Numbered from the stretch's first letter, positions 25,835 to 57,716 are shown. The stretch: DNA of 64,000 bases from Raillietiella orientalis (GCA_036172245.1 JAYWIR010000010.1:62001-126000), one strand, 5' to 3'. Translations and numbers: made by a program. The notes: generated from the letters alone by a model not told the origin.

Positions 25835-25944
25835 TTGCTGGCTTCCATCTGCAGTCGCTCGCGGACTGGGACGACTTGAAGAGCTCAGTCCGCGAGTTCT
25901 GCAACCAGTTTCCCCTGAACCGTCTCCCTCCAGGTTTCGGCGTT
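25835..25944 (+). mobile_element. Tx1 ORF2 linker fragment
   Basis: LQSLADWDDLKSSVREFCNQFPLNRLPPGFG. Confidence 0.85.
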
Positions 25945-28069
25945 GCCACCCGGGTACGCCCGAGGCGTTTATTCAGAAAAAAAAAACTCTTTATAATTCG
26001 TGGTATAAGGCCCCACTGCGGCCTTAGACACGGGACCTGTCGGGACACCGGGACGCAGCCCGGCGTGGCACTCTTCGACAGCGAAAGGGGATGAAGGAAG
26101 AACAAAAAGAAAAATAAAAGAGATGAACAAACATAAAGAGTTTGGAGGGAAGGGAAGGGATCACTGGACGCTGTGAGGAGGGCCCATCCGTCGAAGGAAG
26201 CCCTCGAGGTCCGTCCGCATACTTCCCAGATAAGACCATCGGGCAGCTCTCCGCAAGAAGCGTACTGCGTGCTGGATGACGTCCCTCTCGTTCCAATCTT
26301 CATCTTCGCTGCTGGCATCGCTCCAAGCCGCCACGATGCCTCGAACGCAGCACAGGGCTGTGAGGGCTGCAGCTGGCTGCAGGGCGTCCCGCACGAAGAG
26401 GAGGCGGAAAATGTCTCTGGGTGCACTGCCCATAGGGAGCCCGAGGGTGGTCCCGAACCGTTCCCAAAGGGGTCGGAGGGCATCACAATCCAATATAAGG
26501 TGGGGAAGCGATTCCCGCTCCCCGCACCTAACACACGCAGGATCAACAGTTCCCCTCGTTCAGTGGAAGCGGCGCGCGTTGCAGGGTAGACCCCAATGCA
26601 ACAGGAGTAACGCCGACTCTTGCCACTTGAGGGGCAGGATCCTGGGTTCCTTCTTCATCACTGGGGGCCACTTCAGCTCATCCAACGGGATGGCGAGCAG
26701 CTCGCCCCATCTCAAGATTCCACGCGGCTGGACGCTCGGGGTGGTGGTGTTTGCCAGTTGACCCATGATCCAGCCGCTCATCTTCTTCTCCCGTCCCTCG
26801 ATGCAGCAAGACACTTGCCACCTTGGCGTCCGGCTGCTGTGAAGCGCCCTCCTTAGGAAGGGCATCGCCGTAGCAAGGCAGGTTGTCTCGGCCCACGTGC
26901 TTGTAGCGGGACTCTCCAAGAGATCCCGCAGCGTGCAGCGAGCGTAGGGGCCGCATCGGAGACGATTCCACGTTTCGTGACTTCTCCGGTTTATCACAGC
27001 CCAGGTGCCGATGTTCTCCTCCATCCAGGCGGAGGAGTTGGCAGAGCTGCAAACCATCCAGCGGTTCTCCATGGCCAGGGTTGCCATGCGCCCAAGCAGT
27101 AGGCCGCATCTTCGGATCTTCCGGCCGGAGCACAGAAGAAAAGACGCGAGTCCCTCGCACCGGGAAACACGGCTGGCGAGGAGGCGGGCCGGAATGCACC
27201 AAGGGGTGCTCCATAGCTTCACTGCGATGGCGAGGGTGCGCCATCGCAGCTGTTTCTCCACGCGCCCTAGCGTCAGGAGGCTGAGACCGCCGTCTCGACG
27301 CAGAGCGCACAAATCCTTCAAAGGGGCTCGGGGCCTCCCCTTGCCCCAAAGGGCGATGCGGAGGAGGTCCTTCGTCCTCTTCTTCACTTCCACGGGGGCG
27401 GGGCAAACAAAAAGCAAGGGGCGGAGGATGGGAACCGCAAACGCGTTATAAACCTCAGCCCGTTCCGGCAAGTGAATCTTGCCTTCCAAAAAGGGGCCGA
27501 TCATTTTGGAGGCAGCTAAACCACGCTTCCGCAGGGGAGTAATCCCCAAACGGCACACCAAGGTACTTGAAACACCTCGCCGTGGGGATCCCAGCCCTGC
27601 TTACGCCGCACCTACTGGCACAACCGACGATTTCGCCCTGTTGACCTGTAGTCCGGACCGGACTACAGGTCAACAGATCTGCTTAGCCGCGGGTCCCGCG
27701 GCTAAGCAGATCGAAGAAATCTCCGACCGCCTTTGCCGTGGTGGACATCGGCAACAAGAGCAGAAGATCGTCGGCATACGCTGCTACGGTGGGCGTGCCG
27801 GGGCACGAGCTCGGCAAGGGGGCCAAAGTCACCCTATATGCTCTCAGCATCAACTCACAGTAGGTGCTGAAGAGCAGGGCACTGAGACTATCAGCTTGCC
27901 TTATGCCCCGCCGCACCGGCACGCCATACACCTTCTGAGTGCTGAAACCGATTGAGATAATCGCGTTCCGCCAGCAAGAGCGCAGCTAGGAAATCAAGGA
28001 GGGTGGAAAGCCCATGCGACCCAGGAGCACCAACAGGAGATTCTGGTCCACGCAGTCGAACGCCTTGTG
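25945..28069 (-). mobile_element. Tx1 element C, 3' half (RT from KAFD onward, zinc finger, 3' UTR); continues at 39259-40140
   Basis: GIRQADSLS, AYADDLL and LPLKWQESALL motifs; 3' terminal motif at 25945-25973. Confidence 0.92.
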
Positions 28070-28163
28070 CGCTCTAGGGTGGACGTGTTTTCTCGGTGCT
28101 CCTCGTGCCAGGAAGTCTCCCCCAGTGCAAGCGTCGTGTGGTTCGGTGGTCGATCAGGCAGCG

Positions 28164-29470
28164 ATGCCTGACGCGACCACCAGGGATGGCCAGGGGGCAG
28201 CGGCAACGCCGCCCTCAGAGGCGATGGAGAGCCAGGGGGCGGCGGCAACGTCGCCCCCAGAGGCGATGGAGGTGGGGGCATCCGCCCCCACAGAATCGGT
28301 CCCCGCTGCAGCGCGGGCGTGGAGCGCAGTTGTGTCGGCGCCATCGCCTGCAGCCACGGCGGAATTGTCGGCCTATGTAGAGGAGGGGTACAACCCCTCA
28401 TTGTTCTACAAGGTAGGCAATTTATATTCTTTAGAGAGCGCGCGCGCCTTCTCGAAGGGCATGCGCGCTCTCGATGTGAAAGAGGAGGAGCTCAGCGCGA
28501 TGACCATCCGCAGCGGGGGTCAGTACGTTGAGGTCATCTGCAAACATGCAGAGCTGGCCCAACGACTGCTTAAAACCCCCGTTGTGATGGGGACGCGCAG
28601 GCTTCTCCCCACTACGGCGGACCGCAGCATGGTGGTCCACCTGTTAGGCGTGACCGCGCGAATGCGCAAAGAACAGGTTCGCGCCGCTTTGGAACAGTTC
28701 GGAACGGTCCACGCGCAGTGGACGAAAGTTAGTCCTTTCGAGGACTACACGGGGCTGCAACACGGCCTCACTGCTGCGCGCGTGACCGTTCGGGAGGGCT
28801 GCACTCTTCCCCACAAACTAGTGGTCGAAGGCGAAACCGTCGACCTCTGGTATGTGGGGAAGCCGAAATACTGTGGCTTCTGCAATACGTCGGGCCACCT
28901 CAAAAAGAGGTGTCCCAATGTGCAGTGCCAAGTATGCGGCACAATGGGCCACACGAGGGAGGTGTGCCCAAAAGCAGCAGTGCGGGTGGTTTCCAAGAGA
29001 AACCTTAAAAAACGCGCCCGGCTTCTGCAGAAAAGACTGGCGGCGAAAGCTGCCGCGAAGGCTGTGCCACCCGCGCCCAAGACCCAGGTTGCACCCGAGA
29101 CCCCGGCGACCAACGCCGAAAAAGTTGAGGGAGCCGACCAGGAGACTGAGTGGCAAGTGGCAACAGCCAAAAAATCAAAGAAGGAGAGGAGGATGGAAAA
29201 GAAAATCGCCTACCAACAGAAGAAGAAAGAGCAGGGAAGCGCGATAATTAAAGAGTGCAGCGTCGTTGTCGAACGCGTTCTCGATGTTGCCGAACGCTGC
29301 CGGAAAGAACTCGCCGCTACCGACGACCTCCCCTCTGTTGACACAGTCAACAGCGAGGGGAGCGAGCCGGCGGCGGCGTCCGTCATCGACACCACCATCG
29401 ATGACGTAGCCTTCGCGCGAGCCGCGGAGGAGCTGGCAGCCTCGTTGCAGCCAGAACCCTCCAAGGCCAG
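28164..29470 (+). CDS. Element A ORF1 (gag-like: RRM-like region, two CCHC knuckles), 5' part; resumes at 35124-35506
   Basis: CGFCNTSGHLKKRC and CQVCGTMGHTREVC. Confidence 0.9.
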
Positions 29471-29561
29471 TTGGAGGACGTGTTTTTCCTTCACTCCCCA
29501 AAGAGTAGTAGGAAAGCGCTTTTTCTTCTGTGTGGTGTTTTGTGTACATCGTCGGTGTCCA

Positions 29562-31312
29562 ATGGCCACGACGCCAGAGGACACCGCGATGGAGGTGGGA
29601 GTGGGGGAGGCTAGTTCGCCCCCACAGCCTACTGGAGCAGGGGCAGCCGCCCCGGAATCATCCCCGGCCACGCCGAGGACATGGAGCGCCATGGTGGCCG
29701 CGCCCAGCGCAGAAGCCATGGCGGAGATGGCCGCATACAAGGCCTCCGGGTACAAGCCATCGCTTGTCTACCAGGTAGGCAACTTGTTCGACGGCCGGAC
29801 AGCGCGCGCCTTCCGCAAAGCGTTGAAGGACGCGAACGTTACTGAGAAGGATCTGGACGGCCTCTCCGTCCTCAGCGGCGGGCAGCGGGTCGAGGTGGTC
29901 TGCAAAGATGTCACCTTGGCTCACCGCCTAATCCATGCGCCGCTGAACGTAGACGGCCGAAAGATCCTGCCAGTATCAATGGACCGCTCCGTGGTGGTCC
30001 ACATGACTGGCATCACCAGCCGCATGACGCGGTCAGCGGTTGGTGAGGAATTAAGAAAGTACGGTGAGGTGCACGCACTGTGGCCGAAACCCTCCATTTT
30101 CGACGGCTTCGATAGCCTTTTTGGTGGGCAGGCTGCAGCGCGGGTGACCGTACGGGAGACTTGTGGGCTTCCCCACAAACTACAGGTGGCGCAAGAAAAC
30201 CTCGACCTGTGGTATGTAGGGAAGCCCCGGTATTGCGGGCATTGTGATACCGTGGGACACCTACGTAAAAGGTGTCCCAATATACAATGCCATTTGTGCG
30301 GGGAGCGGGGCCACGTTCGGCGCGTGTGCCCAAAACGTCCCACCCCGGTTCCCCCTGCCGCGAAAAAAGCGCAGGGGAAACGCGCTTCAAAGGTCTCTAG
30401 ACCTAAAGTGGAAAAGGGCCAGCACAAGCTGCCAACACCTCAACCTCCGGCGCGTAAGCCGGAGGATAAACCTTCTGAAACGGTGGAAGGCGAAGAGGGA
30501 TGGCAGCTTGTAGAGGCCAGAACACCAAGGAAACTCCCACCCGCGGAGAGCAAAGAGCGCAAGACGGCCGGAAAGCCAAAAAAACCCGGTCCGCGCTCGA
30601 AAACTCTGCGCGAGTGCACGGTGGCACTCGAACGAATCGTCGTTCCCGAGATTGCCACCCGGAGCGTCGATCCTCCCCTTGCCGTTTCCGCTGCGCCCGA
30701 GGCTCGCGACGGCGAACCCTCTGTTTACACAGAGGGTGAGCCGCGCGACATAGCGGCGGTCGAAGCCGCGGACGCCGCGTTCGCGCAGGCGGCGGAGGAG
30801 CTCGCGGTCACGCTGGCCGAGCGTGAGAATCCCTCGCGCAAGGCCGTGCGAAGGCCGGCTCCGGCGAGGAAGGCCCCCACAGGTGAGTTAGACCTGGGGG
30901 CCGGAAGCACATCCTCCTCCTCGGAGGCACCCCCCAGGAAGTCGGGACGCAAGTCCCAGAAGCCCAGGAGGCGCCTCCCTCCACCAGCGAGGAGGAGAAG
31001 ACGGAAGCCGTCGCCAGCGTGGGAAATTCGGAGGAGGAATTCCCACGCTCGGAAGCCGTCGATGCGGCCACCCCCATGGAGGAGGGTGAACAGGGGGGTG
31101 AAGTCCCCCCTGCAGGTACCGACCCTGAACAGCCCGCCCCCATGGAGGAGGGCGAACAGGTAGGCGCGACTCCACCTGCGGGTGATCCGGCCGACGCGCC
31201 GGCACCGATGGAGGAGGGGGACCAGGTGCCTTCAGCACCTGACCCCCCTGCTCCACCTAGCGTCTCGCCCCAGCAGGTGGCGGACGCCGCACTGCCATCT
31301 TCCCAGGAGTAA
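29562..31312 (+). CDS. Element B ORF1 (frameshift near 30990)
   Basis: CGHCDTVGHLRKRC and CHLCGERGHVRRVC; PMEEG repeats at the C-terminus. Confidence 0.88.
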
Positions 31313-34300
31313 CACCTGGGCTCGCCAGTCGCCGTCGGATTCGCGCGGCCTGTTGGAATATCAACGGGCTGCGCGACGACGGTAACAGGCGAGATACAGC
31401 TGACACCCTGCGGGAGTTCGACCTGGCCCTGTTGCAGGAGATCCACGTGATCACCGCGGCAGACGTCCAGGAGATCGAGACGATCGCGGGGGGTCGGCTG
31501 TACTGGCAATGCGGCATTCGCAACACCTGCGGGGTCGCGTTCTTCGTGAAGCCGGCCATCGACGCTGCCGTGAAGGGCGTGCGCTTCGATGACGACGGTC
31601 GGGTCGGTCAGCTGACTCTCGGCTGGTCGGACTCGATCGATCTGATCGTCACGAATGTGTACGCCCCCACCGGTCAAAAGGGATACAGCAACCGTACCAG
31701 GCTGCTTGAATCCTTGAAGCGCGACTGGCTGGCGAACACGAGCGTGCGGAAGGCTCACCTGATAGCGGGAGATTTCAATCTCCGCCTGCTAACAGGTGAG
31801 CCGGAAACACAGGTGAACGCGATGAACGAGTTGTGCGCCGCCATGCGTGCGCGCAACTTGTTCGCGGGTGAGGGGAATTGTCCGCAGCATCGACCACGTC
31901 TTCCTCGACGCTGACCTGTGTTCACGGGTCGGCAAACGGGGGAGGGTTGCGTCAACGTTGTCGGACCATTCCCGGTTAATTTTCGAGATGCGGCCTCGCG
32001 ACAAAGGACCGCCATCCAGAGACTGGCGTCTGCCGGGGGACTGGACGCGACTCTCAGGTGCGAAGGAACACCTTCGCGAATACCTGAGAGGCGTCACGCT
32101 CCGGAATCTCCAAGACTGGGACCTTTTCAAGGAATCGGTCCGGGAGTTCTGCGAGCAGTTCCCCCTGGACCGCCTGCCCTCCGGATTCGGCGAGGGTCCT
32201 CGCAACCATCGGGCCTATTTACAGGCCCGAAGGTACGAGCGAACCCCTAATGTCCGTCGCCTGGCCGAGTACCGCGCCGGGGCCGAACGCCAAGTCTGGC
32301 AATCCGGGTCGGCCAGCTTGCTGGACGACCAGGGCCGGGAATGTTCGTCCCCGGCGTCGGTACGGCATCTCGTGCGGAGTTATTATTCCTCCCTTTACGC
32401 CAGGGCGCCCCCGGATCAAGATGCCTCTCGGCTCTTGCTTCCGGATGGTGCTGCGGCAATAGGGGAGGAGGAGTCGTTAAGCCTCGATGAGCCTTTTACC
32501 ACCGGCGAAATTCTCGCCGGTATCAAAAGGCTCAAGAGGCGGAAAGCTCCAGGGGAAGACGGCTTGCCCGCGGAGTTCTATCAGAGCTTCGCGGAAGAGC
32601 TGGCACCCCTGCTGCTTCAGCTGACAAGGCTGATCCGAGACGAAGGCAATGTTCCCGCCTCGTTTCGGTCAGCCAGAGTGAGGCTCCTTCCGAAAGGGGG
32701 AGACCTTAGGAATTTGAACAACTGGCGTCCGATCACGATTGTGAATACGGACGCCAAGTTGGTTGCCGGGCTATGGGCTTCGCGTCTGGGGCAGGTGGCA
32801 GAATCCATTATTAGCCCGGAGCAGACATATGCTGTTCCCGGGCGAAGTATGGATGCCAACCTCTTCTTCGCGAGCACGTGGATGCACGCGCAGAGGTGTC
32901 AAAAGGAAGGAAAAGGAAAAATCGGCAACCCCACTTTGGGGCCGCCAGCAGGGCAGGGAATGGACTCCCGGGCGGGGAAGGGGGCCTTAGCGCTCGCAGT
33001 CGATCTCCATAAGGCGTTCGACTGTGTTGACCAGGGGCTTTTGTTGGAGCTCCTGGGTCGCATGGGCTTCCCACCCTCCTTGATCAACTACCTGCGCTCC
33101 TGCTGGCGCCATGCGATAATTTCCGTCTCTTTCAGCGGTCAGAAGGTGCATGGCGTGCCGGTGCGGCGGGGCATCAGGCAGGGAGATAGCCTGAGTCCCC
33201 TGCTCTTCAGCACCTACTTTGAGTTGGTGCTGAGAGCCTACAGGGTGACTTTGGCCTCCTTGCCTAGCTCGTGTCCTGGCACGCCCGCCGTAGCAGCCTA
33301 TGCCGACGACCTTCTGCTCCTGTTACCTATGTCCACCCCGGCGAAGGCGGTCGGAGACTTCTTCGATCTGCTCAGCCGTGGAACCGGACTGCAGGTCAAC
33401 AGGGCGAAGTCGTCGGTGGTGCCAGTAGGTGCGGCGTGGGCAGGGCAGCAGGACTGGGTCCGTCTGGGGATCCCCACGGCGAGGTGCATCAAGTACCTTG
33501 GTGTGCCGTTGGGTGACTACTCCCCTGCGGAAGCGTGGTCCAGCTGTCTTCAAAAAGTCGAGACGGCGATCGGCCCGTTCCTGGAAGGCAAGTTTCACTT
33601 GCCGGAACGGGCCGCGGTTTGGAACGCCTTCGCGGCCCCCATCCTCCGCCCCTTGCTTTTTGTTTGCCCCGCCACCAGAGAATGCAAAAAGAGGACGAAG
33701 GACCTCCTCCGCATCGCCCTTTGGGGCAAGGGGAGGCCCCGAGTCCCTCTGCAGGACTTGTGCGCTCCGCGTCGGGACGGCGGCCTTGGCCTCCTGACGC
33801 TGGAGCGCGTGGAAATGCAGCTGCGGTGGCGAACCCTCGCCATCGCAGCGAAGATGTGGAGCACCCCTTGGTGCGTTCCGGCCCGCCACCTCGCCAGGCG
33901 TGTGTCCCGATGCGAAGGACTCGCGTCGTTTCTTCTGTGCCCTGGCCGGAAGATCCGAAGATGCGGCCTTATGCTCGGACGCATAGCAACCTTGGCGAAG
34001 ACGAACGGTTGGATGGTTTGTGGCCCCGCCAACTCCTCCGCCTGGTTGGAGGAGTCTGCTGGCACATGGGCTAAGCTGAACCGGAGGAGCGAAAACCACA
34101 TGAACTGCCTGCGAATCGGCCCATACGCCAACCGCACCCTGCGGGAAATACTGGAATTTCCTCGGAGTCGCAGCTGGGCGTTGACGACCCCCCTTGCTAC
34201 GGCGATGCCCTACCTCCTGAGGGCGCTTCAGGATTGCCAGAAGCCGAGGTGGCAAGTCACCTGCCAGATCGCAGGCAGGGAGAAGATGTTACGCGGCTGG

Positions 34301-34906
34301 ACCACAGGAGAACTGGCGGACGCCACGACCCCGAGCGTCCAGCCGCGTGGACTAATGAGATGGGGCGAGCTGCTCGCCATCCCTACGGATGTGCTGAAGT
34401 GGCCCCCGGTACTGAAGGAATCCAGGATCCTGCCCCTTAAGTGGCAAGAGTCGGCGTTGCTTTTGTTGCACTGGGGTCTACCCTGCAACGCGCGCCGCTT
34501 CCACTGGACGAGGGGAGCTGTGGATCCTTTGTGTGCCAGGTGCGGGGAGCGGGAGTCGCTTCCCCACCTTATTGTGGATTGTGCTGCCATCCGACCCCTC
34601 TGGGAACGGTTCGGGGCGACCCTAGGGCTCCCTACGGGCAGCACCCCCAGAGACGTTCTTCGGCCCCTCTTCGGGAAGGACGCACTGCAGCCAGCCGCAG
34701 CCATCGCAGCCTTGTGCTGTGTCCGTGGCATCGTGGCGGCATGGAGCGACGCCAATAACGAAGGAGTGGGTCCACACGCGAGGGATGTCGTCCCATACGC
34801 CCAACGCTTCATGCGGAGAGCTGCCGGATGGCCCCAACTGGGGAATATACGGACGGACCTCGAGGGTTTCCTTCAACGGATGGGCCCTCCTCACAGCGTT
34901 CAGTGA
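31312..34906 (+). CDS. Element B ORF2: APE, RT, zinc finger (one frameshift near 31870)
   Basis: WNING, LQE, NVYAP, AGDFN, IDH, SDH; KAPGEDG, WRPIT, DLHKAFD, GIRQGDSLSP, YADD, KYLG; CARCGERESLPHLIVDC. Confidence 0.95.
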
Positions 34907-35505
34907 TCCCTTCCCTGCCCTCCAACTTCTTTTTGTCTGTTTATGTTTTTTATTTTTCTTTTTGTTTTATCCCCATCCCCCTTCGCTGCTGAGGAACGCT
35001 ACGCTGGGCTGCGTCCCGGCGTCCCGGCAGGTCCAGTGCATATGGCCGTGAGCGGGGCCTTGTACCGCGGATGTAGAGATGTTTTTTTAAAAAATAAACG
35101 CCCCGGGCGTACCCGGGTGTAAACCTCCAAGGCTGGCAAGAAGGCCGTAAGGCGTCCGGCCTCCCCTCAGGAGTCCCCCACTTCCGACCCCGAGGTGGAG
35201 GCCGGAAGCGCAGCCTCCGTTTCTACGGCACCGCGCAAGAAGGCTGGACGTAAGTCCACAAAGCCAAGGAAGCTCGTCTCCCCCGTCGAAGGGGAAGAGA
35301 TGGCTTCCGCAAGCGAGGGTGCCATGAGCGTGGGAAACTCTCGGGACCCGTCGCCCGAGAGACTCCCACGCACGGACACGGAGGGGATGGAGGGGGTGGA
35401 GGCCGAACAGGTGCCTCAGGTGCCTGAGAAGGCCGAAACCCCCATGGACATCCCGCCCGCCTCGAAAGAGGAGGGCTCCCCCACACCTTAATCTTCCCAG
35501 CAGTA

Positions 35506-38500
35506 ATGCCGGGAATCTCCTCCCGCCGTCGTCTGCGCATCGCCGTTTGGAACGTGAACGGCATGACAGACGCCGGCAGGAGACGAGACATGGCCGCCCT
35601 TCTGGAGTCCTACGACCTTGCGCTGCTGCAGGAGATCCACGTGATCTCTGCAGAACAAGCGCAAGAGATCGAACGGATCTCCGGAGGGCGGCTATGGTAC
35701 AGGTGTGGGAGAGCGAAAAGTTGCGGTGTCGCCTACCTGCTTCGGCCAGCCGTCGACGCCGCGGCTCGGGGCGTGCGGTTCGACGATCACGGTCGTGTCG
35801 GCCAGCTGACTCTCAGGTGGTCCGACTCGATCGATCTGATCGTCACGAACGTGTACGCACCGAGCGGCAAGGACCTGATGAACAGGAGGGCGAGGAAAGA
35901 GTTTTTCCTTGCCCTCCGGCGAGACTGGCTGACCGAAGCAGGCGTGTGGAATGCCCATCTGGTTGCAGGCGATTTCAACGTTCGCCTGAAACCAGATGAG
36001 CAGAATCCCGAGCGTGACCTGGTCAACGAGGTGTGCATGGCGGTGCACACCTGTAATCTGTTGGCCAGTGCACCGGGGATGGAAGACAGCATTGACCACG
36101 TGTTTCTTGACGAGCACCTGTGCCCTCGCGTGGGCAGGCGCGGCAAGTTACCGTGCGAGCTGTCCGACCATCGCCCGCTAGTCCTCGAGATCCATCCGCG
36201 CGACAGGGCCCCCCCCTCGTCAGCGTGGCGTCTCCCAGGGGACTGGCTGAAGCTCCCGGACGCGGCGGAACATCTCCGCACGTTCATACGGAGCTTCAGT
36301 CTGCGGACACTCCAGGATTGGGACCGCTTCAAGCGGTCGGTCCAGGAGTTCTGCGACCAGTTTCCTCTGCACCGCCTACCTACGGGTTTTGGGACCGGGG
36401 TCCGTAACGAACGAGCCTACCTGCAGGCCCGTCGTTACGCCAGGACCCCCGACATCCGCAGGCTGGCGGAATACAAAGCGGGAGCCGAGAGGCAAGCCTG
36501 GCAGTCCGGATCGGCCAGCTTACTGGACGATCAGGGCCACGTGCACTCGGCACCTGCCCAAATCCGCGGCCTGCTGCGGAGTTACTACTCCTCCCTGTAT
36601 GCCAGGGCACCTCCGGAGAGGAACGTCTCACGACTCCTGCTTCCGGAAGGCACTCCAGCGATCGGGGAGGAGCAGAGAAAGACCCTCGACGAGCCTTTCA
36701 CGATGGACGAGATCATCTCGGCCATCGGAAAGCTCAAGAGGCGAAAGGCTCCAGGGGAGGACGGCCTGCCCGCGGAGTTTTATCAAACTTTCGCGGCTGA
36801 GCTTACCCCCCTGGTACAGCAACTCACCTTGCTGATACGCGAAACAGGTGACGTTCCCGCCTCGTTTCGTTCGGCAAAGGTGCGGCTCCTCCCTAAGGGA
36901 GGAGATCTGAGGAGCATGACCAAGTTGCTAGCAAAGGTTTGGGCAGAGCGTCTGGGACGGGTTGCCAACATCTTCATCAGCCCGGAACAGACATATGCTG
37001 TTCCCGGGCGAAGCATGGAGGCGAACCTGTTCCACGCTTCCACCTGGCTAGAGCTCCAACATGAAAGGAGCTTGGTGCGCAGACGGAATTCCGGTGCGTG
37101 CGCCGGCAAGAAGTTGGATGGTCGGGTGGGGGAGGGAGCCCTTGCGGTCGCAATCGACTTGCGGAAAGCATTCGATTGCGTCGACCAGAATCTCCTTCTG
37201 GAGCTTCTGGAACGCTTGGGCTTCCCGGCCTCATTAGTGGCCTATCTGCGCTCCTGCTGGCGCGACGCGCTCATCAATGTTACTTTCAGCGGGCAGACGG
37301 TGCACGGCGTGCCGGTGCGGCGTGGGATCCGGCAGGGAGACAGCCTGAGCCCCTTGCTCTTCAGTACCTACTTTGAGTTGGTACTGAGAGCGTACAGGGG
37401 AACTCTGGCGCACCCTGCCGCACGACTGTGCCGGTACGCCGGCCGTTTCAGCATACGCGGACGACCTTCTGCTGCTGCTCCCTATGTCCACCCCGGCTGC
37501 GGCGGTCGAGGAGTTCTTCGACCTGCTGCATCGGGGAACCGGACTTACGGTGAACAGGGCGAAGTCGTCCGTGATGCCAGTTTGTGCGGCGTGGGCAGGG
37601 CAGCAGGACTGGGTCCGTTTGGGGATCCCCACGGTGAGGTACTTCAAGTACCTTGGTGTGCCGTTGGGGGACTACTCCCCTGCGGAAGCGTGGTCCGGCT
37701 GCCTTCAAAAAGTAGAGACGGCGATCGGCCCGTTCCGAGGCGGCAGGTTTTTCCTGCCTGAACGGGCCGCGGTTTGGAACACGTTCGCGGCTCCTCTCCT
37801 CCGCCCCCTGCTTTTTGTTTGCTCCCCCACAGAGAGGATTAAAAAGCGGACAAAGGACCTCCTCCGTATCGCCCTTTGGGGCAACGGGAGGGCCCGAGTC
37901 CGCTTAAAGGACTTGTGCGCTCCTCGTCGGGATGGTGGTCTGGGCCTCCTGACACTGGAGCGGCTGGAGCTTCAGCTCCAGTTCCGCTTGTCGGCACTCG
38001 TTCCAGAGTTGTGGTGCACCTGTTGGTGCGTCCCTGCACGTCTCCTTCTCCAGCAAGCCACCGGCAAGACGGGACTGACGTCGTTTCTTGCACTCCGTCG
38101 CCGTGTCAACCGATGCGGACTCCAGCTACGGAGGGTGGCTGCGCTGTATCGGAAAAACCCAGGATTGCTCACCTGTCGCCCGTTTAACGGTAGTGCCTGG
38201 TTGCAGGAAACCGTTCGAACGTGGGGACGGTTCGGCATGCAACGCTCCCAACAGGAACGAAGGTTCCTGTTTGGGGGTTACAGAAGTTGCACGCTCCGCG
38301 AGATCCTGGAGGATCCAAAGAAGAGAGCGTGGGCAGGAAGAACCCCCCTCGCTGCTGCGCTGCCCTCCCTGATGGAAGATCTGGACAGCGATGTTGCGGC
38401 GAAGTGGGTGGTTACAGTAACAATCTCCGGAAAGGAGAAGAAGATAGGAGAGTGGAAGACAAGCCAGTTAACAGACGCTGCGACCCCGAGTACGCCTCCC

Positions 38501-39052: not shown

Positions 39053-39258
39053 TCCCTTCCCTTACCCTCCCAACTTTTCTTTTCTTTTTTGTTTTTCCCC
39101 CTTCCCCCTGCTGCCGTGGTGGACCGTACCGGTCTGCGAACCGGTGACCCGGCAGGCTCTGTGTTTCTTCGTGCGTGGCTGGAGCAATGGTCCAGCCACC
39201 GCACGTCTTTGTAAAAGTTTATTTTACAATAAACGCCCCGGCGAAATCCAGGTGAAAA

Positions 39259-40140
39259 TCGAACGCCTTATGGAGATCGACTGCGAGCGCTAGGGCCCCG
39301 TTATCCGCCCGGGGGTCCTTTTCCAGATCGGCTGGCGGCCCTGAAGTGGTGCTGCCGATTTTCCCTTTCTCTTTCTTCTGTCTCCTCTGCAGGTGCATCC
39401 ATGTGCTTGCGAAGAAGAGGTTGGCATCCATACTTCGCCCGGGAACAGCATAAGTCTACTTCGGGCTAATTATGGATTCTGCCACCTGCCCCAGACGCGA
39501 AGCCCAAAGCCCTACTAGCAACTTGGCGTTCACGATCGTGATCGGACGCCAGTTCTTTAAATCTCTGAGGTCTCCCCCTTTCGGAAGGAGCCTCACTCTG
39601 GCTGACCGAAACGAGGCGGGAACATCGCCTTCGTTTCGGATCAGCCTTATCAACTGAAGCAGCAGGGGTGCCAGCTCTTCCGTGGAGCTCTGAAAGAACT
39701 CCGCGGGCAAGCCGTCTTCCCCTGTAGCTTTCCGCCTCTTGAGCCTTTTGATACCAGCGAGAATTTCGCCGGTGGTAAAAAGCTCGTCGAGGCTTAACAT
39801 CTCCTCCTCCCCTATTGCCGGGATACCATCCGGAAGCAAACGCCGAGAGGCATCTTGATCCGGGGCGCCCTGGCGTAAAGGGAGGAATAAAAACTCCGCA
39901 CGAGATGCCGTACCGACGCATGAAACGAACATTCGCGGCCCTGGTCGTCCAGCAAGCTGGCCGACCCGGATTGCCAGGCTTGGCGTACGGCCCCGGCGCG
40001 GTACTCGGCCAGGCGGCATACGTTAGGGATTCTCTCGTAACGACGGGCCTGTAAATAGGCCCGATGGTTGCGAGGACCCTCTCCAAATCAAGGGGGCAGG
40101 CGGTCCAGGGGGAGCTGCTTGCAGAAATCCCGGACCGAAG
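39259..40140 (-). mobile_element. Tx1 element C, 5' part of RT (5'-truncated)
   Basis: KATGEDGLPAEF, WRPITIVN and LAVDLHKAFD ending at the 3' end of element A. Confidence 0.9.
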
Positions 40141-40610
40141 CCGACACCAATGGAGGAGAAGAATCAGGTGCTCGACACACCGACACGTCCGCCTCCTAGC
40201 GTCCCGCCTTAACAGGTGGCGGACGCTAGGAGGGGACGGCTCCTGGAAACCCAGGAATGGATCTCCTGCAGCCCAACGAACTTTGAAGCCTGGCGGCAGG
40301 AACTGTTGCATGTCTGGGCAAAGCACCAGGATGTTTCCTTCCTGGAACTCCGTTGCGCTCACCTCTCCCCGTACTGCACGGTGGATGAGGTGTGCAACAG
40401 CCAGGAGGTGTGGACCCGCCTGGCCGTCACCCCCCTCGCCGACGCACTGTCAGCCCTCAGGGAAAGATATGACATCTGCGAACCGGCGAGATGGGAGGTC
40501 GCCTGCACTATCGCAGGAACAACACGACCTATTGGCGGCTGGAGGACTTGCGAGCTGGCGGACGCCGCCATGCCTCGCCACGTTCCGAAGGGACTCCTTC
40601 GGTGGAGTGA
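40141..40610 (+). mobile_element. Tx1 family E-like ORF2 fragment
   Basis: WISCSPTNFEAWRQE..LRCAHLSPYC. Confidence 0.85.
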
Positions 40611-41236
40611 ACATCTCCGTTGCTTGGTCTTCGGAGATTACGTGGATCTCCTGGAGTAGCACCAGGTCGAACGATGCCAGGGTGGAGGCCACGTCTCGTC
40701 TCTTGCCGTCGTCGCTTAGACCGTTGACGTTCCAACAGGCAATTCGCAGACGGCGGCAAGAGGCGATTCCCGGCATTAAGGCTGGGAACGTGGCGTTGCA
40801 GCACCTGTCAAGGGACAGGTGGAAGTAACGAGTAAGGGGACCGCGGCCATCTCAGGCACTTGAATCACCTGGGGCACAGACTCTACCCTTTCCCTCCCCC
40901 CAGGGTCGCAGCGTGGGGTCACCTCTGGAGGAGAGTCCCCGGAGTTCCCCACTTTCTTCGCACGCTCGCTTCACTCGATTATCTCTCCCTTTTCCACGGA
41001 AGGGATAATTTTGCGGGTAGCCTTCTTCGTGCGACTGGCCTTCGGGCGGGAGACCGCGATGCCGCAGGCTGTTTTCCGCCTCTGCGTCAGAGTTCGGAAT
41101 CTCCGACTTCTTGATCGAGGTCGGACGCCTTAAGGTGTTTTTCGCGGATTTGGGGGGACGCTGCAAGGAAGCAGCGAGCTCCTCCGCTGCTCGCTCAAAA
41201 GGGACGTCATCGAGCATGCGTTCGACGACGACGCTG
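40611..41236 (-). mobile_element. Element A' (A-like): ORF1 3' end and APE start; upstream part lies at 47455-48642
   Basis: SVVVERMLDDVPFERAAEELAASLQ, then MPGIASCRRLRIACWNVNG. Confidence 0.85.
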
Positions 41237-44200
41237 GACGGATGTGTTCTGTGTTGCTCCTCGAGCGTGATTTCTTTCCGTCTTCTTGTGTGAGGTGTGC
41301 CCGAGTGCGTCCACTGGGATGTCCACGGAGGCCCTGCAGCAAAAGATGGATGTGGAGGCTGCTACTGGCAGTGGACACTCTACTCCAGATGCCCGGTCCG
41401 CCTCTGATTCTTGTGTCTCGCCACCGGCGAGAAGCTTCGCCGCCGTCGTCAAGGCGGCGGCAACCAACGGAGCACCGCCCGACGAAGCGGAGCTGCAGGC
41501 ATATGCAGCCCATGGCTACAAGCCTGCTCTCTGCTATCCGGTGAGTGCTGCAATCTCCGACGGGGTCGGAGAAAATTTATGGGACGAGCTTTTGCGCGTC
41601 GGGGTCCGACAGGACGACCTCCTGGCCGTCATGCCGGTTAACGCGCTCGGACACTGGGAGGTGCATTGCAAAGAGGCATCCCTAGTCCAGCGCCTCCTAC
41701 GCACCCCGCTAAACATACGCGGGAAGGAGGTCGTCCCGTCGGCCATGGACCAGTCGTTCGTGGTCCGATTGTCCGCCGTCCAGGTGGACACGGCCGATCG
41801 CGTGCTCGTCGGTGCACTTAGTGCATTCGCCACAGTGCATGCGCTGTGGAGAGCAGACAATCCGATCAAAAGGATTGCATCCCTCCACAGCGGATTAGCC
41901 ATGGCGCTTGTCACTATGGCGAATAGGAGACAAATGCCTCCGCACTTGCAGGTGGGCGATGCGATCGTCCACCTTAAATTTGCCGGTCAGCGACCGGCTT
42001 GCGGCATTTGCGGTGCAGAGAGCGACCGTCCGTGGACGTGCCCTTCACGCAACTGCCGCTATTGTAAACAGCTCTGACACTCCATCAAAGAGTGTGCCGA
42101 GCTGAAGAGAAAGCGGCAGGCGAAAAGCCGCCAACAATCTACCCCGTCCGCGCCGAAAAGATTCCCCGTTGTGCCACGGGAGAAATCGAACGCAAAGGGC
42201 GGGGCATCATCGAGTGGCGGTCCCGCGAAAAAGGGCGCGGTTGCTCTACGGACGCCACCATTTCACACAGCCACGCCGACGGGAAAGATGCCACGTCGCC
42301 CTGGGGCAAATCGCCTCCTTCGAAGCAGCCCAACAGTGCGGGCACGCACTCAATGAAGGCTGCTGAACCGTCCGCGTCCCTTTCCGCGTCCAGCGGAACA
42401 CACGGGAAACCGTGCGCGAGCTCCCTTGGAACTGCCTCTGAACGGCAGTCTCCTCCTACGGCGGCGAAGATCACGTCTTCCACGCCGAAGGCACGAGCAG
42501 CGAGGGCTGCAATAGCGCCTCGCGCGACGGCGACAATGACCGCCGTTTCGCCCGCACCGGCTAAGGAGCAGGTGCAGCGCGTAACGGGGACGGAGCCGTC
42601 TCCCGTCGCGAGCGCGAAACGTGAGCCGGCATCTCCGGCCAAACAATTGAGGGAGGCGTCGGACTCCCAGGAGGGCGTCCCCGACGCGGGCTGGACTTGC
42701 GTCTACAGGACGCCCACAAAGGGGAAGAAGAAGGTTGACCCTTCGATATTCCCCATCCTTAAGGTGGGTGGGAGGCAGAAGAGAAGCACGCCGAAGAAGG
42801 TGCGTACCCAGGTACGCACTACGGCTGCGTGCTCTTCTCTGTCGCTTCGCGCGAGAGGGCGGCTGCGGAAGCCAAAGCACCGGAAGCTGCGTTGGCGACT
42901 GCGACGACCCCCGCGCGGGCAGGGCAAGCCTCCACCTGCCGAAACAAAAGAGACAGGCAAATCGCCAGTCTCGCGCCAGGCACTCGGACTCCGAGGTGGA
43001 GTCCGAGTGCAAACAAATGGAGCGCGCATCCCGGGGTAAGCCGGTAGCGCGCCATGCTGAAGTGCGAAAGCACGAGCCTGTTGCCGGAGGCGGTTCCGGC
43101 TCCTGCACGGAGACCGAGGCGATGATCCTCGGCTCCCAGGACTCAGCTGGGCGCGATGTGGCGGCGAACGGGAGCGATTCCGCTTCCCAATCCGCTCTCC
43201 TACCAGCTGACTTCTCGCCGGACGGGGCGAGGAGCACGCCGTCATGTCCGCAGCAGTGATGCGTGCACTCGCGTCCGCTCGTCGCTTCAGCGTGGCCTGT
43301 TGGCATATGAACGGGCTACGTGATGCTGACAAAAGGCGGACGGTAGCCAACGCTTTGCGCGCTTTCGATCTGGTGCTGCTGCAGGAGATACATAGCATCT
43401 CCGAACGGCAGGCATCGGATCTGGAAGAGCGCGCGAGCGGGACGCTACACTGGCGGCAAGGCTCCGCGCACACGTGCGGAGTCGCGTTCCTCGTCCGAGG
43501 CAGGGTGGCGGAGGCGGTGCGGTACGTTTGTTTCGAGGAGGAAGGTCGTGTGGGCCAACTTGTCCTCAAGTGGTCCGAATCGATCGACCTGGTCGTTACG
43601 AACATCTACGCGCCGAGCGGCGGCCGGCATTACGCCCAGCGACTCGCATTCCTGGGTGGCCTGCGCAGCCGCTGGCTCGCTGACTCCGGCCCTAATGTGG
43701 CGCACCTCCTTGCAGGAGACTTCAACTTCCACCTGCTAACAGAAGAGAGATGCCGCTTGAGGGAGAAGCAACTGATGAGCAAGGTATGCGCGTCCGTGCG
43801 CGTGCAAAACTTGCTTGCTGGTGAGCCCGGGATGGAGAGATCGCCGGACCATGCGTTCCTCGGTGAACACCTGCTCTCACGAGTAGGTCGGAGAGGGCGC
43901 CTGCTGTCCGCGATTTCGGATCATACGAGACTGGAGTTTGAGCTCCTCCCGCCTGGCAAAGGGCCTCCGATGAATGTCTGGAGGTAGCCGGCCGACTGGC
44001 TTAGCAATTCGGAGGCGGCGGAGCATCTTCGCCAGCATCTCGAGGGCTTCGCCATCCGTGAACTCGAGGATTGGGACGATCTGAAAAGATCGGTCCGCGA
44101 GTTCTGCTGCCGGTTCCCCTTGCACCTGCTTCCCCGCGGCTTCGGGGAGGGTGTCGTGAACATCAGATCCTATCTGCAGGCGCGTACCTTCTCCCGATGC

Positions 44201-47200
44201 CCGGACGTCCGGCGTCTGGCGGGGTACAAGGCCAGGGACGAGCGCCAGGTTTGGCAGTCTGGAGCGGCTTGTCTGCTCGATGACGCTGGCCAGGAATGCT
44301 CGGCTGCAGCCGAAGTACACCGCGTAGTCAAGGGCTACTACTCCTCGTTGTACGCGGAGGAGCCCACGGAACGCAGTCTCTCCGAGCTGCTTCTTCCGAC
44401 GGGTAACCCTGCTATCGACGAGGAGGAACGCGCCGGATTGGAATGGTCCTTCACGGCGGAAGAAGTAACTTCCGCCATAGCGGGCCTGAAGAGGCGTTAG
44501 GCGCCTGGGGAGGATGGCCTGCCCGCGGAGTTCTTTCAGTGCTTCGCGGCGGAGCTCGTCCCCCTGGTGCTAAGCCTTTCCTCGCTGATGCGTTTTGAAC
44601 CCGGTTGCTCCGGGACGTTTATTTGTAAAAACGAACCACAATCTTCAAAGCAAATTCATCCTTTCAAGACACAAGAAACGCCCATACAGAAAGTTCAGTT
44701 CAGAAAGATCACCGGCACGCAGGTTGCCTTCCAAAAGAAAGGAACGGAGGGAGAGGGATACAAAATAAACAAAACATAGGAGAACAAACAAAAAAACAGT
44801 GGAGGGTGGGGTCAGGGATCTTTGGTAGTAAACGTTCCTAATCTTTCTAGAAGCGCTGTTTGACAATGGCGACTTCCCTGGAGACTTTTCTGGGCAGATG
44901 AGGCCACCTGACAGCTGCTTTCATAAGGTTCGCAGCGATTCTGGCGGCGTCCGTTCGCTGCGAGTTTCCTTCTAGTTTACGGCGGGCGATCACGATGGCG
45001 CGGATCCTCGCTGATGCATGAGACGGGAGATGTTCCCGCTTCTGTCCGCTCAGCAAAGGTGCGGCTCCTGCCGAAAGGCGGGGATTTGCGACACCTCAGC
45101 AAGTGGCGTCCGATCACCTTGGTGAATTCGGACGTCAAGTTGTTCTCGAAGCTATGGGTCGCGCGCACGGGGAGAATCGCGGAGTCCTTGGTAAGTCCGG
45201 AGCAGACGTATGCTGTTCCGGGGCGGTCTATGGACGCGAATCTCTTCTTCGCGCGAACATGGTTCGAGTTGCAGCAGCGCGTGGCGCAGCAGAGCCAGGT
45301 AGCCGAAATCGCCGCTGCCAAAGGTAAGCGGCGGTGTTCAAGGCACGATGGAAGGCCGGGAGCCTTAGCAGTCGGCGTTGATCTCTGCAAAGCGTTCGAC
45401 AGCGTAAACCAGGACCTCCTTCTGGAGCTTCTAGGACGCCTAGGCCTCCCGACGCACCTCATCGCCTATTTGCGCTCCTGCTCACGCCACGCGTTATGCT
45501 GTATCTCTTTCAGCGGGCGCCACGTGTACGGCATTCCCATACGGCGAAGTATCAGGCAGGGAGACAGCTTAAGCCCCCTGCTCTTCAGCATCTTCTTTGA
45601 GTTGGTGCTGAGGGCGTACAGGCTGACGCTGGCCAACCTGCCGAGCTCCTGCCCGGGAACACCGGCCGTGGCCGCCTATGCTGACGACGTTCTCCTGCTG
45701 CTGCCCATGTCCACCCCGGCGTCCAGGCTCGAGGGCTTCTTCGAGCTCATTCGTCGAGGAGCAGGCCTGAGCGTCGACAGGACGAAATCAACCGTTACAC
45801 CGGTTGGCTCTACGTGGGAGGGGCAGTCCGACTGGATCCACCTGGGGATCCCCATGGGCAGGTGCTTGAAGTACCTCGGCGTTCCCTTGGGCGCCTTTTG
45901 TCCAGCAGAAGCGTGGTCGGACTGCCTTCACAAGGCCGAGACTGCTCTGGGCCCGTTCCATGGAGGCAGGTTTCTCCTGTCGGAACGGGCCTTCGTGTGG
46001 AACATTTTTGTTGCCCCCCTCCTCCGTCCCCTCTTTTTTGTTTGTCCCCCTCCCTACTCGGCTAAGCGCCGGGCGCAACACCTTTTGCGGAACGCCCTGT
46101 GGGGACCAGCGAAGTCCAGGATACGCCTCAAGGACCTGGCGGCTCCTCGGCGGGATGCAGGACTGGGCATCCTCACGCTGGAGCGGATCGGACTGCTAGT
46201 GCAGTTCCGCATGCTGGCACTTTGTGCGCAGCTCTGGACTACTCCCTGGTGTGCTCTAGCGCGGCTGCTGCTGCGGCGCTGCACGGGTGGCGACGGACTA
46301 CGTTCGTTGCATCTGCGCACGGAGCGCGCCCAGAGAGGATTCGGCTTCCCTTTGAAGCAGCTCGCCACGCTTCTGGGAAAGCATGAGTGGATCTCCTGCC
46401 GGCCGACGAACTTCAACGCCTGGAGGCAGGAAGCCTTATCGTCCTGGGCAGCGCAACAGGATGTGTCCCGTTTTGAACTCCGTTGCGTGAACCTTTCCCC
46501 ATACTGTCCAGTGGGGGAGGTGCTGGAAGACCAGGACCACTGGACACGCCTATCCGCTACGCCACTCGCCGAAGCACTGTGTGCACTGATGGTGCGAGAC
46601 GACAGTGACCTGCCGGCGAGGTGGGAGATCGCTTGCGAAATCGCAGGCGAAACCCGACTGCTGGGCGGCTGGCGGACTTGCGAAGTGGCAGACGCTGCCA
46701 CACCTCGCCTCCGTGCCAAGGGACTTCTCCGGTGGAGTAAGCTCCTCGGGGTGCCCACTGATGAACTTGTGGTCTCTTCTGCGTGTTTGGACGCGACTCT
46801 CTTGCCCCTTCGGTGGAAACAGGACGCTTTTCTGCAGGTGCATTGGGGTTTGTACTGCAACCAGCGGGCGCACCTGATTTCCGGGGGAGTTGCTTCCCCG
46901 AACTGTGACCAATGCGGAGCGGTGGAATCGCTTCCGCATTTGCTGTTTGAGTGCGGTGTCCTCCAGGAGCTGTGGCGGAGGCTGTCTTCAGCGCTCCTGC
47001 ACCCTGGACACACCGCACTGAATTGGATGCGCCGCTTCTACACGCGTGGAGGTCTTTCTCTTGGAGCGGTCGTCGCAATCAACTGCTGCGACCGCGCCAT
47101 TGTCAGGGCCCGCCACGTATTGCAGAAGCGAGCAGTCCCAACATCGGTCCCCGACACCGCAGCCTACAACCTTCAAATGGCTGCCGGGTGGCCACACCTG

Positions 47201-47454
47201 GGAGCAGAAGTGAGGACGGAGATCGGCGGCATTCTCCGCCGGTTCTGAGAATAAAAACGGTTAGACGGCATACCCCTGTCCCCGCACTCCCACCCAATTT
47301 ATTTATTTATTGTCCCACTCCATCCCGTTCCGAAGTCTCAGTGTGCCCGGCCTGGATTCCGGGAAATCTACTCCCCATTTTCTGTTCCCCTTGCCTGGGA
47401 ACACAGTTCCCGGTTGATATTATAAATAAACGTCCCGGCGCAACCAAGTAATAA
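41237..47454 (+). mobile_element. Tx1 element E, full length with stop codons, inserted antisense into ORF1 of A'
   Basis: 5' motif GGATGTGTTCT; ORF1 knuckles; APE from about 43259; RT and zinc finger to 47248; 3' motif at 47425-47454; TSD ACGA(CG/TA)ACGCTG at 41225-41236 and 47455-47466. Confidence 0.9.
44592..45004 (-). mobile_element. 5'-truncated Tx1 inserted antisense in the RT of element E
   Basis: Perfect 13-bp TSD TCCTCGCTGATGC at 44579-44591 and 45005-45017; 3' motif on the minus strand at 44593-44623. Confidence 0.92.
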
Positions 47455-48642
47455 ACGATAACGCTGCATTCTTTAATCTGCTCGCTTGCCTACTGTTTTT
47501 TCTTGCGGTACGCGAGCTTTTTCTCCAATCTCCTCTCCTTTTTTGTCATTTTGGCCGTTGCCACCTGCCACCCAGGCTCCTGGCTAGTTCCCTCGACTTG
47601 TTCGGCGTTGTTCGCCTTGGTCTCGGGTGCGGCCTGGGCCTTGGGCGCGGGTGGCACAGCTTTCGCGGCAGCTTTCGCCGCCAGCTTCTTCTGCAGCAGC
47701 CGGGCGCGTTTTTTAAGGTTTCTCTTGGAAACCACCCGCACTGCTGCTTTAGGGCACACCTCCCTCGTGTGACCCATTGTTCCTCATACTTGGCACTGCA
47801 CATTAGGACACATCTTTTTGAGGTGGCCCGACGTATTGCAGAAGCCGCAGTATTTCGGCTTCCCCACATACCAGAGGTCTACGGTTTCGCCTTCGACCAC
47901 CAGTTTGTGGGGAAGGGTGCAGCCCTCCCGAACGGTCACGCGCGCAGCCGTGAGGCCGTGCTGCATCCCCGTGTAGTCCTCAAAAGGACTAACCTTCGGA
48001 CACTGCGCGTGGACCGTACCGTATTGCTCCAGCGCGGCGCGAACCAGTTCTTTGCCCATCCGCGCGGTGACGCCTAACAGGTGGACCACCATGCTGCGGT
48101 CCCCCGTAATGGGGAGGAGCCTGCGCGTCCCCATCACAACGGGGATTTTAAGTAGTCGTTGGGCCAACTCTGCTTGTTTGCAGATGACCTCAACGTACTG
48201 CCCCCCGCTACGGATGGTCATAGCGCTGAGCTCCTCCTCTTTCACATCGAGAGCACGCATGTCCTTCGAGAAGGCGCGCGCGCTCTCTAAAGAATAGAGA
48301 TTGCCTACCTTGTAGAACAATGAGGGGTTATACCCCTCCTCACATAGGCCGACAATTCCGCCGCGGCTGCCGGCGATGGCGCCGACACAACGGCGCTCCA
48401 CGCCCGCGCTGCAGCGGGGACCGATTCTGTGGGGGCGCATGCCCCCACCTCCATCGCCTCTGGGGGCGACGTTGCCGCAGGCCCCTGGCTCTCCATCGCC
48501 ACTGGGGGCGGCGTTGCCGCTGCCCCCTGGCCATCCCTGGTGCTCGCGTCAGGCATCGCTGCCTGATCGACCACCGAACCACACGACTAGGGGAGACTTC
48601 TTGGCACGAGGAGCACCGAGAAAACACGTCCGCCCTCGAGCG
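47455..48642 (-). mobile_element. Element A' 5' end and ORF1
   Basis: Closely similar to 28070-29270; same 5' motif. Confidence 0.92.
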
Positions 48643-49015
48643 CATAGGGCGTTCGACTGCGTGGACCAGAATCTCCTGTTGGTGCTCCTGGGTCGCATGG
48701 GCTTCCCTCCCTCCCTACTGACCTACCTGTGCTCTTGCTGGCGCAGCGCGCTGATTAATATCTCTTTCAGAGGTCAAATGCCGTACGGCGTGCCGGTACG
48801 GCGGGGCATACTGCAGGGAGACAGCCTTAGTCCCCTGCTCTTTAGCACCTACTTTGAGTTGGTGCTGAGAGCGTACAGGGTGACTTTAGCCCCCTTGCCG
48901 AGCTCATGCTCCGGCACGCCAGCCGTAGCAGCTTATGCCGACGATCTTCTGCTCTTGTTGCCGATGTCCACCCCGGCGAAGGCGGTCGGAGGTTTCCTCG
49001 ATCTGCTCAACCGTA
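48643..49015 (+). mobile_element. RT fragment that is the target of A'
   Basis: AFDCVDQNLL..QGDSLSP..YADD. Confidence 0.88.
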
Positions 49016-51036: not shown

Positions 51037-51048
51037 TTGCGACGGCGC

Positions 51049-52277: not shown

Positions 52278-52365
52278 GAGTGGACGTGTTTTTTCGGTGC
52301 TCCGGAAAACCGTCTGTTTTTGCTGGTGTTTGTGGGTTTTTCAGCGCGGTTGTTCCTGGGCAGAA

Positions 52366-57632: not shown

Positions 57633-57716
57633 CTATTGCGCAGTTGGTGAGTATTTATACCGCCACACATTGAGGCACAAACCAGTCTCACCTCGACAGA
57701 ATTACCTGCAGTAACC

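Follow-up and report, generated by a model that had tools for sequence, protein, structure and literature searches.

A LINE nest in Raillietiella orientalis with candidate site-specific insertion into the HKAFD codons of sister reverse transcriptases

The window analysed here, a stretch of 64,000 nucleotides (64 kb) from Raillietiella orientalis (GCA_036172245.1 JAYWIR010000010.1:62001-126000), holds from ~20 kb to its end a nest of GC-rich long interspersed nuclear elements (LINEs). One of them, element P, lies antisense in the reverse transcriptase (RT) gene of a related LINE, host H1, which it splits at the codons for H-K-A-F-D. The 5′ end of a sister copy, P′, follows the same nucleotide in another RT copy, host H2, and a further LINE, element E, has its RT interrupted no more than 2 nt from that bond. 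Candidate site-specific insertion of P-type LINEs into the RT of sister LINEs is the subject of this report.

The LINE nest and its breaks in reverse transcriptase genes

The nest is mostly 58-63% GC and contrasts sharply with its flank, which has 28-29% GC at 1-6 kb and 34% by 6-8 kb; no open reading frame (ORF) of at least 110 codons was found in positions 1-8000. P comprises two parts on the + strand, ~5.5 kb together. The first (28070..29467) carries the 5′ end CGCTCTAGGGTGGACGTG, the 5′ untranslated region (UTR) and ORF1 from the ATG at 28164, and the second (35134..39258) carries the ORF1 tail, ORF2 with apurinic/apyrimidinic endonuclease (APE) and RT domains and a weak zf-RVT match, and the 3′ end ...AATAAACGCCCCGGCGAAATCCAGGTGAAAA. 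ORF2 is frameshifted near 37410. Between the two parts, in sense orientation within P ORF1, lies the full-length LINE Q (29468..35123, +), which has its own 5′ end, ORF1 and ORF2 and is bounded by a 10-bp duplication, CCTCCAAGGC, at 29458-67 and 35124-33, the second copy standing right after a canonical LINE 3′ end. When Q and one copy of the 10-mer are removed P ORF1 is open for 553 codons, and a contig of DNA run X1 joins 29452 to 35127, as in a related copy without Q. An earlier reading made from the sequence alone (hereafter the sequence-only reading) had treated 28070-39258 as a single element A and the host-like RT inside it as A's own; the interval is P with Q nested in it, and that RT is Q's. 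Over a 376-nt RT segment P's own RT is 73.7-76.3% identical to the hosts, and Q's RT 84-86%. A template-jump chimera of two elements (A+B) with a 'double ORF1' was given up in view of the 10-bp duplication, the ORF1 that is open without Q and the X1 joint.

Host H1 is an internally deleted element on the - strand. Its 3′ part (25943..28069) starts with the HKAFD codons of the RT and ends with the element's own 3′ end; its 5′ part (39259..40201) holds a 5′ motif followed by ORF2, which here sets in near residue 100 and reaches as far as HKAFD. At 40184-40240 two LINE 5′ motifs, CGCTAGGAGGCGGACG (-) and CGCTAGGAGGGGACGG (+), stand head to head and form an inverted repeat with an 18-22-nt spacer; the bodies behind them lack most of an element, H1 starting from ORF2 residue ~100 and its neighbour J being an ORF2 C-terminal fragment.

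Element P′ lies on the - strand. Its 5′ part (47456..48642), with the 5′ end CGCTCGAGGGCGGACGTG, 5′ UTR and ORF1, is 91.7% identical to P, and it continues past the nested LINE D with the ORF1 tail and ORF2 start (40622..41237). For this element, the former A′, the 5′ end and junction stand as first described and the extent has been redrawn, since the part at the junction is only the first 1.2 kb and the element goes on at 41237-40622 beyond D. P′ has no 3′ junction and ends at a rearrangement at 40617/40622. H1 was considered as its missing 3′ part and set aside, given the separate 5′ motif at the start of H1 and the rearrangement that terminates P′. Both P and P′ contain a 42-bp tandem duplication (two copies) in the N-terminal part of ORF1, at 28189-28271 and 48449-48531, respectively. 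D itself (41238..47455, +) is antisense in P′ ORF1, with a duplication of 12-15 bp, CGACGACGACGCTGG (41223-37) and CGATAACGCTGC (47456-67); its first nick lies within the second GCGTTCGAC copy, a 9-mer at 41218-26, in opposite orientation to the motif. Host H2 (48643..49018, +) is 376 bp of RT that starts exactly at H-R-A-F-D and is open for 125 codons, and the 5′-truncated LINE C follows it directly.

The two P-type junctions can be read to the nucleotide. On the + strand, 28056..28069 read TCGAACGCCTTGTG, antisense to the H1 HKAFD codons, with CGCTCTAGGGTGGACGTG following directly from 28070 and the upstream side of 28070 reading ...GCAGTCGAACGCCTTGTG. On the - strand, 48656-48643 read TCGAACGCCCTATG, with CGCTCGAGGGCGGACGTG following directly from 48642 and an upstream side of ...GCAGTCGAACGCCCTATG. 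The 14-mer returns as TCGAACGCCTTATG at 39259..39272 (+), immediately past the LINE 3′ end, and the left and right copies form a 14-bp duplication with the consensus TCGAACGCCTT[G/A]TG. The P-type 5′ end, CGCTC(T/G)AGGG(T/C)GGACGTG, is an 18-mer with 2 matches in the window (at most 3 mismatches) against 0.06 expected; its 5′ flank has the form ...GTCGAACGCC(T/C)T(G/A)TG. The reverse complement of the 14-mer, CA[C/T]A[A/G]GGCGTTCGA, followed by C, encodes H-K/R-A-F-D in the RT frame, H1 reading H-K-A-F-D and H2 H-R-A-F-D; we take the KAFD stretch to be part of RT motif A. The junctions of P and P′ coincide in nucleotide, in orientation and in the position of the second-strand cut. On these points the sequence-only reading was borne out: it had described a shared 5′ end directly after the 14-mer at two junctions, the target-site duplication repeated at 39259, and the 14-mer as the antisense of H-K-A-F-D codons.

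The target is a conserved multicopy sequence. Seven RT copies in the window (H1, H2, Q, the copy G63, D, P and E) hold the target region, and three of the seven (H1, H2 and E) are broken at the TTCGA^C bond, E within 2 nt. Around the first nick the target reads CACAAGGCGTTCGA^CTGCGTGGACC, in a longer form CACAAGGCGTTCGACTGCGTGGACC. An unbroken CACAAGGCGTTCGA is found in G63 (63347..63360, +), and other unbroken RT sites lie at 33008-33021 (Q), 45386-99 (D) and 37162-75, the last being P's own site (CGGAAAGCATTCGA; also CGGAAAGCATTCGATTGCGTCGACC). The 9-mer GTCGAACGC occurs 7 times in the window compared to 0.64 expected, with 3 of the 7 occurrences at LINE junctions.

The third break is in E, an element of another family, 73-74% identical to H1 and H2. 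Its 5′ part (51046..55826, +) contains ORF1, APE and the RT up to CACAAAGCATTCAA, and in its 3′ part (58285..60380, +) the RT picks up again at GACTGCGTCGACC, followed by the remainder of the element as far as the 3′ end. The RT is interrupted after TTC(AA) and before GACTGCG, at most 2 nt from the P nick TTCGA^C, with 11-14 nt of filler and no clear duplication. By simple arithmetic, the chance that a random break in the 6.9-kb E lands this close is ~5/6877 (~7e-4). The 2.46-kb insert (55827..58284) is a near-complete endogenous circovirus-like element of the circular Rep-encoding single-stranded (CRESS) DNA viruses. It has a Rep ORF with an intron (PF02407, E-value 2.9e-16; helicase part PF00910, E-value 1.9e-4), a capsid-like ORF on the opposite strand that is open for 344 codons (Circo_capsid, E-value 3.3e-3, weaker than the cut-off), and a stem, GCAATCTGG/CCAGATTGC, whose loop holds TAGTATTAC on the other strand. 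The viral genome is permuted within Rep and has an imperfect end repeat of ~45 nt (55827-55868 versus 58228-58270) with several differences. The C-terminal part of Rep is fused in frame to the RT ORF of E (55352-56479). A look into the literature on circovirus integration with LINEs found nothing relevant.

Directly upstream of E, head to tail with it, stands the 5′-truncated C (49019-51048), which is 95% identical to the 3′ part of E (58374-60392). Similar strings of 9-12 nt (TTGCGACGGCGC and TCGCCACGGCGC) follow the 3′ ends of C and E. This tandem could reflect one target used again, or RNA read-through with a template jump; a conserved ORF1 target for the C/E family was considered and could not be established.

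Site preference of P-type elements and the wider group

On balance we favour the reading that the P-type LINE integrates site-specifically at the KAFD-coding site of sister LINE RTs. P would integrate by target-primed reverse transcription (TPRT) into the DNA for H-K-A-F-D. The APE endonuclease would nick the RT-sense strand at CACAAGGCGTTCGA^C, a position given by the 14-bp duplication, and the cut would presumably be made by P's own APE domain. The 3′ OH at the nick would then prime cDNA synthesis from P RNA and give a new copy antisense to the host RT, which is the orientation observed. The other strand would be cut 14 bp upstream, as the duplication and the identical 5′ junction of P′ show, generating the 14-bp duplication and splitting the host RT within the KAFD stretch. 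At least two independent events would have occurred, P in H1 and P′ in H2, and the break at the same bond in E would have been repaired with viral DNA, as expected of a recurrent endonuclease-made break. One may suppose that the break in E is linked to a LINE endonuclease, that P-type elements prefer the KAFD site across the genome, and that P gains from killing the host RT. A bolder version, tentative and in our view somewhat doubtful, is that the P-type endonuclease is dedicated to the KAFD-coding DNA of rivals, with P as a parasite of other retrotransposons that disables their catalytic core, perhaps with co-conversion of the flank, and that the break acts as an entry port for foreign DNA, in E for a circovirus-like genome.

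Both P-type 5′ ends in the window (2/2) lie at the RT site, at the same nucleotide and in the same orientation. A number of observations weigh against site-specific integration by P. P-type copies number only two, of which a single one has both junctions and the duplication, P′ being without its 3′ part and H2 being 376 bp long. The perfect targets in Q (33008) and G63 (63347) are unoccupied. Related LINEs have duplication-bounded insertions at unrelated sites, namely Q at CCTCCAAGGC and D in P′ ORF1, and a 413-bp 3′ fragment in D stands at CCTCGCTGATGC(G) with a 13-bp duplication; an X1 contig joint from 44592 to 45019 represents the empty site of this fragment. Varied sequence follows the 11 matches to the common 3′-end motif, with the RT site after P's only and the ORF1 site after D's. 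Furthermore, the ORF2 of P, the presumed source of the cutting protein, is frameshifted, and the virus insertion in E could have nothing to do with any LINE endonuclease. All copies are decayed. Because the window has related LINEs inserted into different sequences, the LINE group as a whole is not site-specific. The fixed-site insertion claimed by the sequence-only reading for its family A is therefore upheld in part: two P-type junctions at the same nucleotide and a third break there speak for it, whereas there is one complete insertion and relatives insert elsewhere.

These data bear directly on the possibility that the site is a hotspot rather than a dedicated target. The whole group would nick loosely after CG or CGA in GC-rich DNA, the KAFD site being the strongest of many warm spots used by several families, and elements would pile up since GC-rich DNA is found mainly inside the LINE nests of an AT-rich genome. 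As read from the junctions, CG or CGA stands at the end of the nicked strand in 6/8 cases (TTCGA^ for P, GTCG^ for D, GGCGA^ for E, TGCG^ for the 413-bp fragment, GGCG^ for H1 and TACG^ for the copy at 16413), the exceptions being C (CGCAA^) and Q (GAGG^). That D, from a different family, was nicked inside the second GCGTTCGAC copy in ORF1 in opposite orientation, that C and E stand in tandem with similar 9-nt flanks, and that the GC content of the nest (58-63%) is so far above that at 1-6 kb (28-29%) are likewise in line with a hotspot. Three breaks that coincide at one bond (to within 2 nt), when CG dinucleotides number in the thousands, are not, and neither are the shared orientation and second-strand position of both P-type copies; a loose CG preference would not give a repeat of the event precise to 14 bp. 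We regard the hotspot explanation as rather unlikely in this form. What fits best is a loose preference of the group for CG(A) that P-type elements have narrowed to the KAFD-coding site.

One insertion event or two

The hosts H1 and H2 match at 58/60 nt beside the junction and at 261/317 (82.3%) beyond. Overall they are 84.6% identical (319/377), while the inserts P and P′ are 91.7% identical (1083/1181; Fisher p = 1.6e-4). The comparison confirms the earlier description of hosts that match for about 55 nt and then diverge more than the two inserts do, and it supplies the figures for the divergence of inserts versus host RTs which the sequence-only reading had called for. In the RT frame, H1 and H2 differ by 0.36 synonymous (dS) and 0.116 non-synonymous (dN) changes per site (dN/dS 0.32), with ~27/95 synonymous and ~30/277 non-synonymous sites changed (Fisher p 1e-4); when the most variable 100 nt are left out dS is 0.32, dN 0.056 and dN/dS 0.18. 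ORF1 of P versus P′ gives dS 0.22, dN 0.053 and dN/dS 0.24 (p 5e-11), with ratios of 0.16-0.28 in all thirds. The two shifted frames of the coding strand have ratios of 1.2-2.4, and the antisense frame with common wobble positions is also low (0.28), as expected of it. The identity of H1 to H2 (84.6%) is not above that of H1 (85.7%) or H2 (84.1%) to the unbroken RT of Q. In the ORF1 tail and ORF2 start of P and P′ only 392/598 aligned nt are identical.

The low dN/dS in hosts and inserts, together with an H1-H2 likeness no closer than that to Q, argue for P/H1 and P′/H2 as independent insertions, and not for a copied junction; host and insert lineages would have diverged while functional. The sequence-only reading had preferred independent insertions over one duplicated junction, and on this point the present estimates agree with it.

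The converse explanation is a single entry of P into an H-type RT followed by copying of the junction, be it by segmental or inverted duplication, by retrotransposition of a composite or of P with 5′-transduced flank, or through gene conversion among copies of H; the virus would then share the bond by coincidence. Such copying would account for the identical junction, for the 58/60 matching nt of adjoining host and for a similarity that falls off with distance on both sides, and it is compatible with a short H2 that is without its 5′ half and a P′ that is without a 3′ junction. Copies of one junction are predicted to drift neutrally, however, and the ratios of 0.32 (0.18 without the variable block) in the hosts and 0.24 in the inserts, set against 1.2-2.4 in shifted frames, do not look like drift. 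Moreover, H1 and H2 do not form a closest pair, the tails of P and P′ agree at only 392/598 nt, and chance (~7e-4) would have to account for the third break at that bond. For these reasons we consider a single ancestral junction improbable.

Two features of the same comparison count on the opposing side. Over the first 50 nt the hosts match at 48/50, compared to 41-44/50 with the unbroken RTs, so that similarity peaks at the junction, and dS between P and P′ climbs from 0.11 through 0.24 to 0.34 away from it. As similarity is highest at the junction and decays outward, some exchange of sequence across it is possible. The peak could stem from a long recognition sequence, from co-conversion of the flank at integration, or from recombination among active lineages.

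An assembly artefact, with repeats mis-joined at a conserved k-mer, is very improbable: the region is highly repetitive and one X1 contig ends 3 nt past Q's site (an end that is itself no evidence), yet at the junctions RT meets a LINE 5′ end, a LINE 3′ end or virus and never another RT, the duplication flanks P with both host halves in register, the halves of E flank the virus in order, and the copies are 85-92% identical, not identical.

Known systems and the class of the elements

Stringent APE-type LINEs are established, namely R1Bm in 28S rDNA and Tx1L in the DNA transposon Tx1D (PMC1950540). Target-specific LINEs of the Tx1 and R1 clades are described from multicopy genes (rRNA, snRNA, tRNA), transposons, microsatellites and telomeres (PMC4640811), and it is the endonuclease that defines the site in target-specific LINEs (PMC4640811; PMC1919474). 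Tx1L of Xenopus laevis resembles P as an APE-type L1-group LINE that inserts into one sequence of another multicopy transposable element (TE) (PMC1950540, PMC6719617). Unlike Tx1L, whose target Tx1D is a DNA transposon, P has as its target the protein-coding DNA of a related LINE's conserved RT motif; identity to Tx1-annotated proteins is only ~30%, and specificity here builds on two copies and one virus-filled break.

R1 makes a 14-bp duplication. Like R1 and R2 of 28S rDNA, P shows nucleotide-precise insertion into a conserved multicopy sequence with a duplication of fixed length (PMC4640811, PMC1919474). Unlike these elements, which target host genes or simple repeats, P targets the RT gene of other retrotransposons, and what is disabled is a mobile element, not a copy of a host gene. 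Self-nesting elements are exemplified by DIRS-1 in Dictyostelium and Zepp in Chlorella. A preference of TEs for other TEs, and the building of nests, is documented for Tourist in Tourist and for nested families in maize, and P shares with self-nesting TEs the preferential landing in other TEs (PMC6719617). In the cited passage the preferences of self-nesting TEs are regional or loosely sequence-based, and none is reported at one bond in a conserved coding motif (PMC6719617).

P differs from homing systems in its APE-type LINE machinery, its 14-bp duplication and the lack of intron splicing. In homing endonuclease genes and in group II intron retrohoming a mobile element inserts at a coding sequence that it recognises and that is conserved across a gene family, and donor flank and element can be co-converted in homing. 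Co-conversion of this kind would fit the near-identical 46-60 nt beside both P junctions, a likeness in the manner of working that makes no claim of membership.

A keyword search of the open-access literature returned no LINE reported to be aimed at the RT-coding motif of another LINE, which is not proof of absence. If the favoured reading holds, a known kind of element has gained a new class of target, with the conserved RT-coding motif of competing LINEs as its safe haven, a view that is partly supported by the data. Its truth would mean antagonism between TEs in which every insertion kills the polymerase of a rival, and would help to explain the growth of a GC-rich LINE nest within an AT-rich genome. 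It would also provide a natural nickase for a sequence of ~14-25 bp, and would connect breaks made by LINE endonucleases with viral DNA that is captured and becomes an endogenous viral element.

By the order of APE and RT and by the hallmarks of TPRT, the elements are APE-type retrotransposons without long terminal repeats (non-LTR; LINEs) of the L1 group. P ORF2 matches PF03372 (APE, E-value 9e-12) and PF00078 (RT, E-value 7e-11), and element E matches PF03372 (E-value 4.6e-14); zf-CCHC (E-value 8e-4) and zf-RVT (6e-4 to 1e-5) are all weaker than the Pfam cut-offs, and CX2CX4HX4C strings are seen in the ORF1 translation. The closest solved protein is human LINE-1 ORF2p (E-value 6e-40). Membership in the Tx1 clade is suggested by the best named protein match of Q ORF2, a 'transposon TX1 ... 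protein' at 30% identity (E-value 9e-40). The hallmarks of TPRT include duplications of 14 bp (P), 10 bp (Q), 12-15 bp (D) and 13 bp (the 413-bp fragment). A common 3′ end, AATAAACGCCCCGGCG...CCGGGTGnAAA, has 11 matches in the window compared to 0.59 expected (at 12003, 16413, 18576, 25958, 35093, 39228, 44608, 47425, 51007, 60351 and 63084) and is probably the recognition element of the RT.

Searches outside the window yielded few relatives. Only three close ones were found in the protein database; P0001 and P0109 are unbroken through the target site, and P0111 begins inside ORF1, with an unreadable flank. Neither a pattern of the 3′ end nor one of the 5′ end of P had a match in viral contigs (0 matches), and 6 matches in a scan of genome contigs, in bacterial records without similarity to the window, are chance matches. 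A metagenome scan with an RT alignment gave at least 16 loci of 25-40% identity, with no nucleotide similarity to the window among the matches listed. Rfam had no match in the window, and no RNA run was found that contains its sampled words; DNA run X1 contains 0.23 of them. Placement of 570 X1 contigs at a likeness of at least 85% gave 28 joints and 286 loose ends, and among the 15 joints and 6 loose ends listed none falls at 28069/70, 39258/9 or 48642/3, which is no evidence either way on the P flanks or empty sites.

The 3′ ends of all LINE families here have AATAAA, a short hairpin (CCCGGC...CCGGG) and the ending TG(n)AAA, with no poly(A) tail. The element following E, F (60392-63115), looks internally deleted, since its ORF1 knuckles and part of the APE run into the C-terminal part of ORF2 and the 3′ end; its APE part is 81% identical to that of Q over 61665-62076.

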